DNA of 64,000 nt from the NCBI GenBank assembly GCA_021852345.1, contig JAJZNL010000036.1, positions 99,940-163,939 on the forward strand, read 5' to 3'. Source of the stretch: Actinomycetes bacterium. GTDB taxonomy: Bacteria; Actinomycetota; Acidimicrobiia; Acidimicrobiales; JABEUL01. The notes beneath the pieces are model-generated. The model was not told the origin of the DNA, did not search any database, and saw only the letters and a program-made list of their open reading frames with translations. Both the position numbers and the translations under genes were made by a program. Of the stretch, positions 2,360 through 40,800 are shown piece after piece (the first letter of the stretch is position 1; each line of letters begins with the position of its first letter).

Positions 2360-2807
2360 TACGATAACTATGATGAGACGTACCGCCAGACTTGCCACAA
2401 TTCCGCTCAATACGAACAAGATTGCTTATATTCGTAACCTGGAGCGCACCTACGCAGACGCCAAGGATCGCTTTCTTCTCGCTCTCGCCCCTACAACCAT
2501 GTGGCACCACCTCTCAAACAAGCGATCATTTCGTGACTGGGCAAAAGTGAATGACCTCTATCCCGCCGGGGTGAATGTGCATCTTCTAGACCAGGCGGCA
2601 TTTGATGCGGTAGATACCTGGGTAAGACACATCGAGTCTGTAATAGCCATCTCCAGACTGAAAGCGAAGATCTATTGCAGATTTAAAAACGATGCCAGAC
2701 ATTACGCCTACTCTGTGTTGAAGTCCTATACGGACATCGGAATGTTGCTTCGGAGAGAAGTACCAGAAAGAACGAAGATCCCCGTCTCTGTCAAGGAGAG
2801 AGAATAG
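2343..2807 (+). pseudogene. Probable N-terminal fragment of an IS607-associated TnpB-like accessory protein
   Basis: Overlaps the tnpA 3' end as IS607 second genes do; basic N-terminus (RRTARLATIPL); ends at TAG with no RuvC or zinc-finger motif. The call rests on position, not on a recognised motif. Confidence 0.5.
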
Positions 2808-3524
2808 GAGGCACTAACAGGGATCAACCTCAATATATGGTTTTAGCGAAATAGCTTAGAAAATTGTAAGACGGTACTTCAATTAAGCACCACAATGACG
2901 CTATCAATGCAAATGGGATCAGGCTCTGATTGCTTTTCATGACGGCGACGAAGCAGTCAAGCGAAAGAAGACTCGCATCCAGCTTAATAAATGGACTTGA
3001 CGGCGACGAGCGGCGGCATATAATTTGAGCAAAGAGCCTGATCCGATGCTCCTTTATGATGAACGTAGTTCCGTGCTCATTTAATGAGCGAATAAAACCA
3101 TTTGAATCTATAGATCGGCTGATAATTCTACCGCCATAGAACCGCATTTAACGTATGATTCACTAACAGTGCCGACTCGCTGATTCCGGTTCATGCGGTC
3201 AAGAACCGGGGAGACTCAGCGGCTGGAGAGCGATCCAAAAGGATGCTTAGAGATGTCTAGGTATTCTAAAGCGGATCAAGAATTTGAAGAAGGCAATGTA
3301 CCATACCGATAAAACCGATTTCTGTTAGATGCGTTAGAGAAATAAGTGAAAAATTGAAATAGTTCGACACGCATCCTTATAAAAACATGCCTAAGTGTAT
3401 TTAACGGACAAACAAATTGACACTTTCGAGTAATAAGAGGGTTAAAATTAATAACGGTCATTCAACTGTTATTTCCAAATTTTGGATGCAGTTCGGTAAA
3501 ATCTTATTTTAAATAAAAATTAAA

Positions 3525-31882: not shown

Positions 31883-34800
31883 ATGGGAAATAATAGTTTT
31901 AAAAAAAATTTATTCCGAAATGTTTTACTAAGTTCAGAGTCGATATCCAATGTTGCGGATGATAGTAATTCGAGCTTGAATAAAGATTGTAACGATTTAA
32001 ACGTTTACCCCAATGATGACTTAAGTATATCTAATCCACCAAGCACAAGGGGGGAATACACTACTTTGGGTTCTTGGCTGCGCTCTTGCGGTGTTTTACT
32101 CCTTGTCGGTGTCTTGATATTTGCATTTACACCGGCCATAAATGAATTGTATCTTGGTAGTTCTGCAACAAATGGAAACTTAATCCCTAAGGCGAATTCT
32201 GGAAAAAACAATTTACATAACAAGAGGCCTAACCTAAAATCGAATCGGCTTAAATCGGGTAGGTTAAGACGCTTTACAAAAATGAAACCGGTTGTAAGCG
32301 CAGCGAGTCTCGGGGCTGGATGTAGCTCAAATGGGGTCACCGTTGTTTGTAATTATTATCCTACCGGTTCGTCTCAAACTTTAACGGTTCCCGTACCAAT
32401 TACTTCCATAAATTTTAGTCTATATGGGGCGCAAGGAGGAGGCGCAAACGGAGGGGACGGATCTTATTTGTCTGGAAGCATGGGCATAAGTGCTTCTAAT
32501 GACATGATAACCATTAACGTCGGAGTCGGAGGTGGGATGAATGCAAATGGTACAAATGCAGCACAACAGTCCGGAGGTTGGCCTAATGGAGGTTCTGGGG
32601 GTTCCAGCAGTTCTAACTCGGGGTGCGGAGGTGGCGGAAGTACTACCTTGGTCGAAGGGGTAAATACTGTTATAGCCGCGGGCGGCGGAGGCTGCGGCGG
32701 TTTTTCCAGAAACGGATCTCCGTCGTCTGGCGGTACAGGTGGAGCCGATAATTCAACTGGAGGCAATGGTCAAACTGGAGGCAATGTACATGTACCTTTT
32801 TGCGGTGGCGCAGGCGGCGGTGGCGGTAGCTCAGGGGTGAACGGAGGCGGCGGTGGCGGTGGTGGCTCGTGTGGCGGTTCAAACGGCGGGAATGCATCCG
32901 GAAATTCTGGCGGCGCAGGCGGGAATGGATATAGCGCCGCATCTCCATATGGCGGAGGCGGAGGAGGCGGAGGCGGCGGCTGGGTCGGAGGCGGCGGCGG
33001 AGGCGGCGGCGGAGACGGCGGAGACGGCGGAGGCGGCGGCGGAGGTCAAGACGGTTGGATCGGCGCCAATGTCGTAGACTATGTTGGTCAGGGTGCGGGA
33101 TACTCGTCATATCCATACGGTCGTAATGGATTTGCTCGAATATCTTGGAATTTGGTTTCCTCTACAGTAACTACATCTTCTTCTATAGTTAATGTTGCCG
33201 CTGGAAACTCTATTCCTTTATACGGTTTGGTGGCTCCTACTGTTGCAACCAATCCTACCTATATCCCTACGGGAACCATAAATTTCGTAAATACCAATAC
33301 AAATATATTGGCGTGCTCGGCGAGCGTTATAGGCTACTCTCAAAATGGATTGGGCGAATGTTATATTTCAGCAACTTCGTTAGGAGAATCCCAATATTAT
33401 GTAAATTATTCGGGTGACGGAGCAATTCAGCCGAGCTATGATTCAGTTATCGAAACGGTTGACGTCACTCCAGATCCCACATCAATTCAGCTTGCTACTC
33501 CTGTTGTAAACAATACTAATCAGAACATCTCGCTGTCGGCAACCGTAACCCCAACTAGCCCTCAAGTTATGCCACTCAGCGGAAGCGTAGACTTCAATTA
33601 TTCGACTTCGAATTTTTCGGGTCCTTTTACTAATTTGGGTTGCAGCCAGACAGTATCTACGACGCTGACGATTGGTCAGACCGCTCAAGTTACATGCAAC
33701 TTTAACGGAATTCCCGGAAGTTCATATTACATCCAGGCAACGTATGTACCAACTTCTGGTAATACTAACGGCTCATCTACATCTAACGTTACAACGTCTA
33801 TCTTAAATAAAATATCTACTACGACTCAGGTGTCGCTCAATACGTCATCGGTTGTGTACGGAAGTAACATTACCGCATCGGCTCTTGTCAAAAATATACC
33901 CAGCTCAACAGACACTTCACCTACGGGTACCGTAACTTATGAGTATTTTGATTCAGCTACAAATACTGTGTCTAACGTTAGTTGTATAGGATCGCCAAAC
34001 CCCGCTCTGGTGACATCTTCTGGTGGTGTTCCCTCGTGTACCTTCATGCCTTCTGTTGCGCAAAATGCGATTGAAACATACTATTCCGGCGACGCCCAGA
34101 CACTTTCAAGTACTTCTGCTGCCGCTAATTTCAGCGTGAGTCGGGCAAGTCTTTCTCTCTCCCTTTCTGCGATTTCGACAGCGAGCGCAAACTATATTGG
34201 AGTACCAGTTGTCGTCACTGCAACGTTGAAGAATTCTTCGAATTCGGGGTCTGCTCCGTCTGGTCCAGTTGAGTTTTTGGAAAACGGAACTCCGATTACT
34301 GGTTGTACCGCAGTAATACCGACCGTTAGTTCAACGGCGGGAACCTCGACCGCTCTTTGTACAGGCGCAACTCCACCGACAAACTTAAGTCCTATTGTGT
34401 TCACTGCAAGTTACTGTTCTTACTCAAGCAATAGCGACTGCCAGAACTGGAATTTGCCGATTGCCGACGGTACGTTTAGTTATGTTGCGGTGCCTGATCC
34501 AACGCAAGTCGCATTATCTCCAGTTGACTCTTTGGTTCATCCGATACATATAAGTGCTGGCACTCCAGTTACCGTGACGGCTACGGTTTCTGACACATTT
34601 GGAAATGTGCCACCCACTGGTTTAATTACGTTTTATGAAAATGGGCAGGTGATCAGCGGCTACAATTCGACGAGTTGTCAAGGGATAGCACCCACTTCTG
34701 GAACCAATAATACGGCAACGGCAATATGTGAATTCGTACCCCCTTCTGGAACCGCGGTGTCCGTAACGGCTAGCTATAACTTGGGTACGGATAACACCGA

Positions 34801-37800
34801 TCCGTTAACAACGGGTTCAAGTTCAAACCTTACTTCGGTATTGTATTATGTCGTAGGTGGTGCCACTACTTCGGTGGTGCCGTCTGTAGAGACTCTGTCG
34901 GGTACTCAAATTTCGACAACTACACAGATACCGTACGGAGAAAATGTTTTGCTTGCCGCAACCGTAACCTCCTCAGGCACAATTGTAAACGAAGGCACCG
35001 TAGATTTTCTTGTCAACAACCTACCCATTACTGAAAACGGAGTGCAAGTTTGCCAGAATATATCGGTGTCTAACGGTATTGCCGTGTGTAGCGTTCCCGT
35101 TGGCCTTGATTCAGGTTCGGTTACAATCGGTGCAAGTTATTCCGATGCTGGTACTGCTTTTAATTCAAGTTCGGGAAATCAAATGTATAGTGTGGTCGCC
35201 GCTACAACAACAACTTCGTTAAATATAGGACCTTATAGCTCAACTTCAATTTACTTAACTGCAACTGTAAATACGCCAAGTTCAAATATTGCGCCGTTGG
35301 GAACGCTGAGTTTTTATGAGAATGGAACTTTATTGAGCGGTTGCACCAATATGCCGGTAACGTCAAGCGGATCGAGTTCGTATGCCACGTGTATAATTCC
35401 AACTCCTGCCGGGTCGAATAACTACTATGGGCAATTTATTTCCAGCAGTACCGCAGATTTCATCGGTTCGACCTCGCCTACGGTGTCGTACCCCGTTATA
35501 TCAAACTGTACTAGCGGATCCGTTTATTCTACAATATGGTCGGACGCTCAAAGTTCGTCGACTTTGACATTCGGAGTCGGACCTCTGGGGACCTCGGTGG
35601 ATAGTTTAAAATTAAACATTGTAGCTCCTACCGGAACATGTAGTACTGGAACCCCGATCTTATTTAACTCTGGAAGTTTCACTTTATTTGGTTCGACTTT
35701 AGCATCTTCGTCTAACTTGTCCGGTTACATTCTTCAATCTTCTTCAGGCACGGTTCAGATTGAGATAACTGGGGGCACAATTAATTTTCCCTCGGGTTGG
35801 CATTTAGGGTCGGTTACTTTTTCACCGTCTACTTCGATCTCTTTTAATTTATCATCAGCAACTACCGTATCGTCACTGGCATCAGCACAATTTGCGGTAC
35901 CGTTAACCGCGCTGCCCTTCGGAATACCAGATTCTTCTTTGAGCTACCAAATGATTGTTAGCATTCAATCAAATTCTTTAATTTCAGTTTCAATAGATCC
36001 GGTCGGATCACCGGGTTCAGTTCCTTACGTAAGCGCAAGTATCAACATAAGCATGAGCGGAACCCAACCGTCGTTGTCTTCCAGTGCGGTAATTGGCAAT
36101 TTACCGTTAGGGGGACCAGTTACGGTAAGTCTTGCGGTTTCTCCCGGCTCTACGGGTTCTGTTGCAGCAAGTATAACGGTGCCTATTACAGGGAGTTCGG
36201 CGACTACTTTGGTGCCCGGACTTTCAGTGTCAAACGTTATTGCAACTTTGTCAAACACATCGGGGCTTACCATTACAGCAACCGCCCAATTTGCCAATTC
36301 AAGTGCACCAGTTACATTGAATCTATCGGGAAACTATTTGAATTCTAAGTGGACATTAAATGTCAGCACAACCACCATAACTTGGTCGCCGTTTGCTTCT
36401 TTGACTATTTCTGCAACATTCAGTGGATCTGTGATAATTTCTACGAACGGATCTATTGAGTATGATATCGAAGCGGGTACGGCACCTACGTCATTAACTT
36501 CACCAGTGCTTGCAACATGGTCACCGACGGCGGGACTGACTATATCAATTAACTGTATTGCTTTGGCCTACGGTATGACGCCTGGCTGCGGTGCAAATCT
36601 TAGTGGTCCGACTCCGACAGACCCGCAGCTTGTTATTCTTGCGGCTATAAATGTCGGCGGATCTACTTATGGTTTGACGGCGGGTGTAAGTGCATCTATT
36701 GATCTAAAGACAGGTGCAATCAATGCCGTTAACGACCCGTCAATTAGCCCCACTTCAATTTCAATCGGGTCGGCAATTACAGTTAATATTACTTCACTGT
36801 CAATTACCGGCATAATAGGGTCTAGCGTAAGTTTTTCCGCATCGGCTTCAGCATTAATTCCGTCGTTGAGCTATGGCTCTTCAAATCCACTTACGGTCAG
36901 CATTTCGGATCAATCAGGTCAACTTTTGATAGTCGTTTCAAATGTTAGTTTTGCAAATGTTGGGTTGCCCTTAGTTGGGTTGTTTATATATAGCTCGGGT
37001 TCGATTTCATCTTTTAGCACAAATGACTCAAATTTCCCGACGGTGAATATAAATCAAGGATTTAATGCCTGGGCGGTTTACACGCCTTCGACTGGGGTAA
37101 TCAATACTCTAAATCAGGCCGGATTTTCGTTGTCGGCCGGTGATACTGTAGTATTTAACGGATCCTGGTCACCTGGTTCGCAACCTACATTTTATGCTGC
37201 ACTTACTGCTCCGACTGGATTCCCATTTTTGAAGTTACCTGGCGGGGCTACCATTAATTCATTTGAATTAGAGTATTCAAACTCCAACTTAACAATTTCA
37301 GTTACAGCGTCGATTCCGCTGCCGTCTGCTGGTACCGCTCAAGTTTTGCTTTCGGTTGTCATTAATGCGGACGGTTCTTTCAGCGGTACGGCAACTATTT
37401 CGAATTTAGTCGTATTTGGGCAGACGTTTGGTTTAACCGGCACCATATCAAAGAGTTCATCTGGAACAATAACGGCAAATATCTCAACTTGTCAACCCAC
37501 ATCTACGGGATGTACTCCAGGGGCAATCGCAGGTCCGATTTCGCCATTTTCGTCAGTGCCGATTCAATTTTCTGATCTTAATTTTTCGTTAGGAACTTCT
37601 GGACTCACGTTCAGTGCCACGATGAGTGTAAGCTCCTTGGGGTCCCTTACGGTAACGGGAACGTTTAATTCGCTTTCAAATTGGACATTTACCGTCTCGT
37701 CATCGATGGCAGAATCTTTTTCGCCGGTTCCTCAGATAACGATAGATGCTGCTTTCAGCGGCACTTTGGCCGATGCTAACGGTGCCATAACATTTAATTT

Positions 37801-40800
37801 AACCGCATCTGGTCAAAACGGAAACCCATTGCTATTGGTAAGTATTAATGGTGTTACCTTTAGCATTGATTCTGTAGAGTTTGGCAACAGTGTACCTCCG
37901 AGCGGATGTTCGATTGCCAATGCGGGAGATCTTTGGTTGAATGCTTTAGGCAGCTTGTCTTTAACACTTGGAAATTTTTCGGGATCGGTAAATGCCGGTG
38001 GTTGTTTTGATATCTCCAATAAGTCCTTTTCTCTGACAGCTACAGATTCTTCATTAAGTTACACTTCTCCTGACGGTTACGTTACCGTTGGTTCGCCGGA
38101 GATTTTGCTAACAGAATCAAACGGAGCCTTATCTGTGTCGGTTCAGGCTAATCTTTCCATTAAAATGCCTGATGGAGGGGCATTCACTTCGACTGTAACG
38201 GTTCAGTTCCAAAACGGTGGTTTTATTGTCGGTTTGGCAGCGAATTTGTCCAGTTGGTTGGGATCTACAGGCGATTCGGTCTATGTTTACTTTTCAACTG
38301 TAGCTGTATCTAGCTTTAATACGGGAGCACCCACGATCGGAACCATAAGTTTGCCAGAGGGCATTACCTTTGCGTTAACTTTAAATGTCCCTCAATCAGT
38401 CTTAAATGCACTAGCGGCTGTAAACATTAATCTTCCAACCGGTACGGGTCTGGTGGCCATAGGTTCGGTGGATTTCGCAAATCATACCTTTGATTTTACG
38501 ATATCGGTTAGCTTTGGTACGGGGATTCAGATATTCAATCTGTCAGGCACCAGTTTGGAGTTGACTTCAGGGTTTTTGTCTGTTACGATTTCTACTTCTC
38601 AGGTAATTTTTGGGATTGGGCTACACGCGACCTTAACATTGCCTGCAGGCGAATCTGGAGGGTCGCCCTCTTCGGTAGATTTAACCGGCGAATTGACTAT
38701 ATCCACGAGCGGAATAAACGTATCGTTAGCGATGGGGAATTGTGGTTCGCCGACCGACCCGGGTTATACAAACGCCTTCGGTATAACTGGGCTTACAATA
38801 AAGTGTGCAGCTCTTCAAGGAGGAATTAGTTTAGACCCACCCTTCCCAAACGTTGGATTCTACGGAACAATAACTTCTTTGCCTGCATCAATTGCCAATA
38901 CTTTGGGTTATATCGAAGGTGCCCCCATAACGTTTGCATTTAACTTGGATCCTTTCTTGTTATCACTTTCTATCGGAACTCAAAATTCGACCACTCCCGC
39001 ACTGGAACCGTTAATGGCCTTTGGTCAAGGGAGCCTCATAGAAATTAACTATGCCTCATTTTATGTATGTCCCTTTGGGGCAACCATTGCCGGAACTGTA
39101 TATCAGCCTGGATTTGGCATGGCTTTTAATGCGGTATTATTTGGGGTAACCGTAGATATTACTGCAGATATAGGGTTTTCGCCACCGAGCATTTATTTCA
39201 GCGGTTATGTATCTCAGATAACGGTGGGCTCTCTATCGATAGGACCAATATCAATTCTTTTGTCCGCTTCTCCTTCCAGTTTCGAATTTAAGTTTAGTGG
39301 TGCACTTAATTTGGGCCCGGGTAATGTACAAATTGGGCCGGCTCTGCAAATCGGAGGCGCGTTAAATGCAAACGTGGAAATTGATTTGAATACCAGTGGC
39401 TTTTCTGCATACATTTGGGGCTCAATATCGGTTACCGTGGCAGTAAAAGTTGCGACGTCAACTTGCTATTGGCATAAGGTTGTTCCCTATCCGTGTAATT
39501 GGCAGTGGAGAGGTACCACGGGAAGTTTTACTTTATCTAAGACGGGATTCAGCGTTAATTCGTCGGGTATTACTTTGTCTGCCGACGGATATGCTCTTAC
39601 ATTTTCTTTCTCAGGCGGGGGTGTTTCCATAAGCAAAGCTTCCTATGAGACGGGTAGTTCAAAGATCCAGAGTCTGCAGTACTCCAAAGGGCATTCAAGC
39701 ACAACGCATGGATCATATCTGTTGATGGCTTACGATAAGGTATCAAACAAGCCGGTAGTAGCAGGTAGTCTGCAGGGCGAACAAAGTGCCAGTGGTTTAA
39801 GTTCCAGAGTTTTAAGTGCCAGTGGTTTGCAATCACAATTAGTCGCTACGAAATCAGTGGTTCCTTTCAACAGTACCCAAGATACGGTAAATCTGAATTA
39901 TGTTACGGGCATAGCTCATGTTATTCCGACTCCAAATGTAAGTCAGAAATTCAATGCCGCTCCGACAATGGGTAATCAAGTGGGTGAGTGGTCGGTATCT
40001 GCTAATTTGCCGACACCAACGGGAATGCCTATGTCAGTTGTTTTAAAGAATGGTGATGTCTTGGTGGCTGGCGGGATTAATGGTAGCGGTACGATTCTAA
40101 ATTCCGTAGAAATATATAACCCAAAGACACAACTATTTACGTCTGCTCCCTCCATGATCTTTGATACCTTGGGCGGAACGATGACTCTGTTAAAGAACGG
40201 CAATGTTTTGGTATCCGGTGGATTTAACAATAGCGGGGCGATGTCTCAGGCAGAGTTATATAACGCCAGCAATCAATCCTGGTCGCTAACTGGATCACTT
40301 CTATCTCCGGCTGCATACAGCCAGTCGATTTTGCTTAATAGTGGAGAAGTCCTGATAGTGGGAGGTGTGAACTCCAACAATTCGCCGGTGGCTAAAGCAG
40401 AACTATATAATCCCGAAACACAAAAATTTAAATCGGTGAGTAGTATGAACTTGCCGAGAGCCGAATTCATGTCAGCCGCTTTAGACGGCAATGAAGTTCT
40501 GGTAGCCGGCGGGGTTACATCCCACGGTAAGATTACTGATACTGCCGAGATCTATAATGTATCGACAAATACCTGGTCATTTACTGCGAACATGACCCAG
40601 TCTCACTACTTAGGGCAGGCCATCTTACTTAAGAATAAGGAAGTCTTGGTTTTAGGTAACTCCGTTTCGGGTGATATATATAATCCCGTAACAAGAAAGT
40701 GGTCTCAGACCGCTGGAGGAGACAGCATTTTGGTGGCCTCTTCAGCAGTTCTATTAAATAACGGGCAGGTACTTGTTGTAGGGGGAAGCAGTCTCGGCCA

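Follow-up and report, generated by a model that had tools for sequence, protein, structure and literature searches.

What does an all-beta body of some 1200 residues do in the middle of a giant surface protein of a monoderm actinobacterium? The question is raised by a 64,000-nucleotide stretch of contig JAJZNL010000036.1 (Acidimicrobiales, GenBank assembly GCA_021852345.1, forward strand, positions 99,940 to 163,939; this whole stretch is called the window, and nucleotide positions count from its first letter), in which the open reading frame (ORF) P0001 encodes a protein of 3094 amino acids (aa). An earlier note, made from the DNA sequence, had proposed for the region 35500-39650, which corresponds to aa 1206-2590 of this ORF, a hidden internal duplication and a lipid-conducting groove of the AsmA/TamB/VPS13 or DUF6603 type. 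Our analysis retains one part of that interpretation, namely the ancient duplication, the all-beta amphipathic hairpins and the monoderm host, and abandons the assignment to AsmA/TamB/VPS13 or DUF6603. The beta-rich core consists largely of two diverged copies of a ~440-aa unit (U1 and U2) followed by a C-terminal module (CM), and no known relative was found outside their own family. On balance, we favour with modest confidence the reading that this U-U-CM block serves a giant surface protein as its rigid body, structural or adhesive in nature.

An ancient duplication in the core of the giant protein

The claimed internal duplication of ~440 aa is borne out by local alignment, by profile-profile comparison and by a constant offset between the copies. 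Smith-Waterman alignment of aa 1400-1849 with aa 1850-2299 gave a score of 225 and was collinear over ~420 residues, while 300 composition-preserving shuffles, a control that matters because the core region is compositionally biased, scored 100 +/- 14 (z = 9.0), with none of the 300 reaching 225. With profiles of 10 homologues, hhalign related the two halves at a probability of 99.8% (E = 3e-27, 400 aligned columns), the probability between U1 and U2 lying at 99.5-99.8%, and a sliding-window comparison showed the offset to be constant at 434-446 aa from ~1389 to ~2280. The motifs on which the claim had been built were all located as placed: LTITATAQF begins at aa 1462 (nt 36266), and its counterpart LTFSATMSV at aa 1908; between the Trp codons of SKWTLNVS (nt 36350) and LSNWTFTVS (nt 37682) the distance is exactly 1332 nt (444 aa); and FIYSSGSISSF at aa 1701 is matched by VYFSTVAVSSF at aa 2135, 434 aa (1302 nt) further on.

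U1 and U2 are 19-25% (about 22%) identical; the same unit compared between genomes is 37-46% identical, and 79% in the closest relative. At the DNA level no repeat was found at the duplication spacing, and the word "hidden" was therefore apt. According to this low identity and the lack of a DNA repeat, the duplication is ancient and visible at the protein level only. It stops at two copies: the stretch of the core before U1 (aa 1185-1388) reached an hhalign probability of at most 6% against U1, U2 and CM, the segment after aa 2280 (CM) has no kinship to the unit detectable by hhalign, and neither sub-repeats inside the unit nor further cryptic copies were found by the same method, the best match having a probability of 27% over 64 columns.

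The units thus delimited divide the giant protein into the following parts, all on the forward strand:

31883 to 41167, +, giant ORF P0001 (3094 aa), a single open frame; predicted membrane-anchored surface protein
32084 to 32140, +, hydrophobic N-terminal segment (aa 68-86), putative signal anchor or signal peptide, read from the sequence, with presumed topology
32330 to 33142, +, glycine-rich region (aa ~150-420; 39% Gly by composition), kept in homologues
33170 to 35422, +, immunoglobulin (Ig)-like stalk of ~7 Big_3_5 domains (aa ~430-1180; Pfam PF16640, 7 stretches, E = 1.3e-9)
35435 to 36046, +, N-terminal part of the beta-rich core (aa 1185-1388), unrelated to the repeat unit by hhalign
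36047 to 37354, +, unit U1, the first ~440-aa all-beta copy (aa 1389-1824; hmmsearch module map, hhalign and AlphaFold2)
37355 to 38722, +, unit U2, the second copy (aa 1825-2280; hmmsearch module map, alignments and AlphaFold2)
38723 to 39616, +, C-terminal module CM (aa 2281-2578; module map, secondary structure and conserved columns)
39617 to 39979, +, Ser/Thr/Gln-rich linker (aa 2579-2699), seen in the translation and poorly conserved in the alignment
39980 to 40972, +, Kelch beta-propeller of ~6-7 blades (aa ~2700-3030; Pfam Kelch_1 E = 1e-36, Kelch_6, Kelch_4)
41048 to 41119, +, putative C-terminal transmembrane anchor (aa 3056-3079) followed by KRRKK, read from the sequence

The beta-rich stretch of ~1400 aa (aa ~1185-2580) sits between the Ig array and the linker and has no match in Pfam or NCBIfam. 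The glycine-rich region at the distal end, with Gly runs of up to ~10 and conserved Cys, matched no Pfam or NCBIfam family, and the blades of the Kelch propeller recur internally in BLAST comparison. The C-terminal hydrophobic stretch and an RRRR tail are kept in all homologues, the N-termini of which resemble signal peptides, and no sortase signal (LPXTG or LAXTG) was found before the C-terminal anchor. As read from its sequence, the protein fits the class of giant surface proteins that have a stalk of Ig domains and a head of Kelch or lectin type; with them it shares an anchor or export signal, a tandem Big_3_5 array, the Kelch domain and, at the C-terminus, a transmembrane segment followed by basic residues. 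It is probably tethered to the cytoplasmic membrane by this C-terminal segment, and by the N-terminal one too. Cys pairs are conserved among the homologues, which fits an extracytoplasmic location. Unlike the described members of that class, however, its ~1400 central residues (the N-terminal part of the core, U1, U2 and CM) belong to no described family; the class of protein is already known, and what is new is the U and CM domain families.

In a tree of 92 unit copies, the U1 sequences of the Kelch-type family form one clade and its U2 sequences another, both with an SH-aLRT value of 100%, so the duplication is older than this family. In the same tree, relatives that carry a ricin-type lectin have their own upstream and downstream units as sister groups, which suggests that they duplicated the unit independently in a second event. 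One cysteine is equivalent in both units (C1569 in U1 and C2009 in U2); the probable partner is found 11 residues upstream of it in U1 (aa 1558) but 32 residues downstream of it in U2 (aa 2041), and the disulfide has apparently changed its pairing since the two copies arose.

Distribution, module swapping and habitat

Nine full-length or near-full-length homologues with 42-82% identity have the whole architecture in common, and the named one among them is from an Acidimicrobiales metagenome-assembled genome (MAG). A genome scan yielded 21 more loci, labelled as Acidimicrobiales, Acidimicrobiaceae or, more broadly, Actinomycetes/Actinomycetota MAGs. When the core profile was run with HMMER against 1.84 billion representative proteins, 223 clusters were matched at E <= 1e-3, and all matches with an organism name are Actinomycetota, mostly Acidimicrobiia. 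Ten matches were traced to their clusters; those with a name are entries for a "hypothetical protein" or an "MBG domain-containing protein" from Acidimicrobiia, and one is from Nocardioides yefusunii. The last (WP_164878716.1, P0110; 3006 aa) is a distant relative with part of U2 plus CM, and this species is the sole obviously tractable organism found for the superfamily. No description of the U/CM family was found in the literature. One Acidimicrobiales MAG (TC-S_metawrap_bin.20; loci L023 and L025) carries two full-length paralogues on different contigs.

Three sub-profiles (U1, U2 and CM) were run by hmmsearch over all family matches, which gave a module map of the superfamily. The Kelch-type family has the order U1, U2, CM; distant relatives have a single U-like unit or a pair, with CM behind in nearly all cases, and many of these relatives match CM alone, which makes CM the most widespread part. 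The flanking modules vary: a ricin-type lectin was found in 10 of the 26 relatives scanned, and PKD, Big_9, cadherin-like, MBG, pentapeptide and DUF11 domains occur in other distant relatives. The ricin-type relatives (P0050, P0057, P0060 and seven others; ~1300-1600 aa) carry the beta-trefoil lectin at the C-terminus and are without a C-terminal anchor. No gene neighbour is conserved across the neighbourhoods of the nine homologues. In the window, the 338-aa ORF 3' of the giant gene (41396-42412) has no Pfam match even at E <= 10, and the gene found after the 82%-identical orthologue (locus L001), which encodes a Caa3_CtaG protein, is not related to it. Synteny therefore lends no support to a two-gene lipid-handling system made up of the giant gene and this ORF. 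Varying binding heads and the lack of conserved operon partners are further likenesses to Ig-stalk giant surface proteins, and U-U-CM, judged from these comparisons, is what stays constant in a small family of giant proteins located outside the cytoplasm.

A constant body with a swapped C-terminal ricin lectin in secreted relatives also resembles lectin-targeted toxins, and the U/CM block might accordingly be a membrane-inserting or cell-attacking module that disrupts a target membrane or envelope, with the lectin or Kelch head for targeting, in a giant toxin-like protein or one of contact-dependent antagonism. The long amphipathic hairpins predicted for CM (strands of 16-26 residues) and the weak structural matches to transmembrane barrels would suit such a role. 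However, no immunity-like or secretion-system genes are neighbours and the gene context is unconserved, the C-terminal anchor would tether the Kelch-type protein to its own membrane, the barrel matches have TM-scores (template modelling scores) of at most 0.2, and no toxin-domain family was matched in Pfam or NCBIfam. We consider this reading improbable.

The charge of the protein was examined in the same comparative way. Asp, Glu, Lys and Arg together make up 4.7% of the core and 4.8% of the Ig region (Lys plus Arg ~1%), compared with 25% in neighbouring housekeeping ORFs. Since the Ig region is equally charge-poor, the depletion spans the ectodomain (32330-40972) and is not confined to the core. 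Charged residues amount to 4-9% in close homologues, 13-16% in distant relatives and 21% in Escherichia coli TamB. Low charge was considered as a lipid-binding signature and rejected, the Ig region being equally charge-poor and the distant relatives not. Four sequencing runs labelled "mine drainage metagenome" contain 100% of the sampled words of the window's sequence, and several close homologues are in MAGs apparently from a mine-drainage survey. Low charge is probably a trait of lineage and environment, an adaptation to acid exposure common to the close homologues.

This setting gives some appeal to a lattice or sheath, in which U-U-CM would self-associate and, as an S-layer-like or fibrillar coat, shield the cell from acid and metal-rich water: the host is a mine-drainage organism, the ectodomain is charge-poor and rich in Ser and Thr, and the protein is large, apparently membrane-tethered and all-beta. 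The distribution is against it, however, with a family match in just 12 of the 401 genomes sampled from the class (and, outside the class, in 1 genome of a 401-genome phylum sample) and a single copy of the giant protein in the window's own genome. The distant relatives are not charge-poor, and S-layer proteins seldom have 3000 aa or two anchors. A lattice former thus has little probability in our judgement.

Predicted structure and the lipid-bridge question

Two AlphaFold2 (AF2) models were built, one covering U1-U2-CM (aa 1389-2585, 1197 aa; 25 sequences) and one covering U1 from a 50-row alignment with both copies from 25 genomes. The long model has a mean predicted local distance difference test score (pLDDT) of 76 and a predicted TM-score (pTM) of 0.45; it is 62% strand and 4% helix, and its 69 strands of at least 5 residues are mostly arranged as consecutive hairpins, with U2 at pLDDT 70-88 and with the longest strands (16-26 residues, forming long beta-hairpins) in CM. 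The U1 model reaches pLDDT 85.7 and pTM 0.80 with about 31 strands (33 strand elements when all of at least 3 residues are listed), and U1 is thus predicted as a confident, self-consistent domain. The pTM of 0.45 for the long model against 0.80 for the single unit fits self-contained units. One face of the strands is 71% Leu/Ile/Val/Phe/Ala and the other mostly Ser/Thr/Gly/Asn, with a mean Kyte-Doolittle difference of 2.6. The earlier description of the region as almost all amphipathic strands with short turns therefore agrees with these models, which consist of two-faced hairpins, although layered beta structures in general call for strands of this kind no less than a groove does.

Mean-field direct-coupling analysis of 149 unit copies (effective sequence number, Neff, ~119) gave a mean z of 1.46 for sequence-adjacent strands, 34% of which exceed z = 2 compared with 2.4% of distant pairs. 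As this coupling of adjacent strands is independent of AF2, it supports a hairpin-meander topology. The first and last strands couple at z 3.3 and a few couplings join strands two or three apart in the chain, but these signals are too weak to tell a single sheet from a layered structure.

Neither sequence nor structure comparison connected the core to a known fold. Nothing relevant was matched by pieces of the core in Pfam (E <= 10), NCBIfam or PHROGs, and sequence searches of the PDB with the 25-row and 50-row core profiles came back empty. In Foldseek searches the U1 model had no neighbour in the PDB (best E 0.12, TM-score <= 0.20) or in BFVD (best E 0.16). The long model was headed by LptDE (E = 6.6e-4) and the ApoB100 beta-belt (E = 1.3e-3), together with SprA, TcB-TccC and porins, at TM-scores normalised by query of 0.04-0.14, which we take for generic up-and-down meander similarity at noise level. 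Ig-like, jelly-roll/CBM, propeller and parallel beta-helix structures were absent among the listed matches, and discrete beta-sandwich or beta-helix domains, the outcome that the earlier note had set against its own proposal, were likewise not seen there. The beta-cocoon of RHS/YD-repeat proteins was considered and rejected: there is no RHS or YD Pfam match, and TcdB2-TccC3 reached just E = 1.1e-2 with a TM-score of 0.06. Judged against solved (PDB) and viral predicted (BFVD) structures, the U unit is provisionally a candidate new all-beta fold.

Could this meander nevertheless be a lipid bridge? If so, U1-U2-CM, perhaps with the N-terminal part of the core, would form one open amphipathic sheet with a hydrophobic groove and move lipids or other hydrophobic compounds from the membrane to the wall or the surface. 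Known bridges of the AsmA-like or repeating beta-groove (RBG) type share an N-terminal transmembrane helix, a Chorein-N domain, a hydrophobic groove, diderm hosts and a repeat built from about five strands and a loop, this repeat being more variable in bacteria (PMC10345924). The giant protein resembles these bridges (TamB, YhdP and AsmA; VPS13 and ATG2) in its long antiparallel beta region, its strongly amphipathic strands, its apparent membrane anchorage and its internal repetition, and in the long model the hairpins run almost unbroken over 1200 aa. The best long-model matches, LptDE and ApoB100, point in the same direction, for the Lpt jellyroll, LptD and the ApoB100 beta-belt are also amphipathic antiparallel meander sheets (weak long-model matches of E 6.6e-4 to 5e-3).

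No Pfam match to AsmA, AsmA_2, TamB (DUF490) or Chorein_N was obtained, either with the whole protein (E <= 1) or with four pieces of the core (E <= 10), and the 25-sequence core profile aligned with E. coli TamB at an hhalign probability of 0.3%. Among the 50 best PDB matches listed for the U1 model, TamB, VPS13, ATG2 and LptA/LptC, and hence bridge-like lipid-transfer structures, were absent; LptD chains appeared at noise level (E 0.34-0.75, TM-score ~0.1) beside other outer-membrane barrels. In the long-model matches, LptDE has TM-scores of 0.07-0.10, the LptDE and ApoB100 alignments together range over 0.07-0.14 with root-mean-square deviations of 38-49 Å, and with the single-unit model these same matches drop to E >= 0.3. 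With ~1000-1200 columns, the LptD alignments would have to run through its 26-strand barrel and not the jellyroll only.

The arrangement of the protein differs as well. The N-terminal segment is followed by ~1100 aa of glycine-rich sequence and ~7 Ig domains before the beta core, so that the anchor is separated from the candidate groove, and the repeat unit, unlike that of the RBG bridges, has 440 aa and is recognisable in sequence. In the U1 model about half of the strand connections have 5 residues or more, and the long ones (at least 10 residues) are irregularly spaced over the 440 aa without any period, five-strand or other, although the five-strand definition is loose for bacterial proteins. 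Neither Omp85 (PF01103) nor TamB (PF04357) was found in the window's own genome (94% complete) while diderm controls were positive; this result and the origin of the homologues in Acidimicrobiales indicate from sequence that the host is a monoderm actinobacterium, in contrast to the hosts of AsmA-like bridges, and there is no second membrane or conserved partner gene for a conduit to serve. The amphipathic alternation is equally expected in any two-layer beta structure. The assignment to AsmA, TamB or VPS13 is thus left without a match in Pfam, by profile or among the listed structures, and a hydrophobic-groove conduit in general is in our view unlikely. That U1-U2-CM represents a new, sequence-unrelated class of conduit, an open groove in a monoderm acidophile convergent with the AsmA/TamB/Lpt bridges, we likewise hold to be quite doubtful.

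The alternative assignment to DUF6603 (PF20248) fared no better. Like DUF6603, the giant protein is large, uncharacterised, beta-rich and bacterial, but no PF20248 match was found in it or in the window's own genome, and the core profile aligned with two DUF6603 proteins of the same order at an hhalign probability of 0.3% each. DUF6603 proteins of ~1180 aa do occur in two Acidimicrobiales genomes (L032/G373 and L033/G379; E = 1e-141 and 1e-124).

A probable body for exchangeable heads

The conserved residues bear on the question of catalysis. In 149 U copies and 119 CM copies, Gly occupies 18 of the 32 columns conserved at >= 80%, followed by Pro, Leu, Ala, Trp, Phe and Cys; the sole conserved charged column is one Asp (81%), and no column of His, Glu, Lys, Arg, Tyr or Ser is conserved. 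CM keeps the motif W-x-x-A-F-G-I-x-G-L. By residue type, the conserved positions belong to turns and core and do not look catalytic. A C-terminal ricin-type lectin or PKD module is common in secreted actinobacterial glycoside hydrolases and lyases, and the presence of both modules in the relatives could point to a novel carbohydrate-active enzyme, in which U/CM would be catalytic and the ricin (CBM13-like), PKD and Kelch modules would bind the substrate. The lack of conserved His, Glu, Lys, Arg, Tyr or Ser columns argues against this reading, as does the absence of any CAZyme-type Pfam match or enzyme-fold structural match, and we regard it as very improbable.

The scaffold or adhesive body is suggested by two sets of observations. 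The block lies between an Ig stalk and a Kelch head in a protein with a conserved C-terminal anchor and conserved Cys pairs; and the heads are swapped for lectin or PKD modules in relatives, there are no partner genes, and the conserved columns are of the non-catalytic kind. We propose that the strands of U and CM would form a compact, multi-strand antiparallel hairpin structure, in which the Leu/Ile/Val/Phe faces are assumed to be buried and the Ser/Thr faces exposed. The U-U-CM block would then be a rigid, acid-stable scaffold between the Ig stalk and the Kelch propeller, presenting interchangeable binding heads, which are Kelch here and ricin lectin or PKD in relatives, and its role would lie neither in catalysis nor in conducting lipids. 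That the hydrophobic faces are buried is inferred, as are the topology and the scaffold or adhesin role, and our preference for this reading is set only a little above even.

Several observations weigh against this body. U1 and U2 join without a linker in the long model, and the first ~50 residues of the unit have pLDDT 81-89 in U2, compared with 56-78 at the free end of U1; as the start of the unit is confident only beside a preceding unit, the units probably abut tightly, and U1 and U2 may form one continuous sheet in these models. The best of the weak Foldseek matches are all meander sheets (outer-membrane barrels, LptD and the ApoB100 beta-belt), and an open, curved sheet of large size would be expected to give the same result. 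CM is so highly conserved that its function may be more specific than that of a spacer, and the annotation of named relatives as "hypothetical protein" lends the proposal no help.

Whichever role applies, U and CM, which together take up ~1200 residues of the protein, stand as two domain families without a counterpart in Pfam, NCBIfam, PHROGs or the PDB. Should the conduit reading prove right, lipid transport of the bridge type would no longer be confined to bacteria other than monoderms. The relative in the cultured Nocardioides yefusunii makes the question of function approachable by experiment. U-U-CM is an invariant block of giant surface proteins found mainly in Acidimicrobiia, many acid-mine-drainage lineages included, and what it does matters for the construction or use of the cell surface in these uncultured acidophiles.

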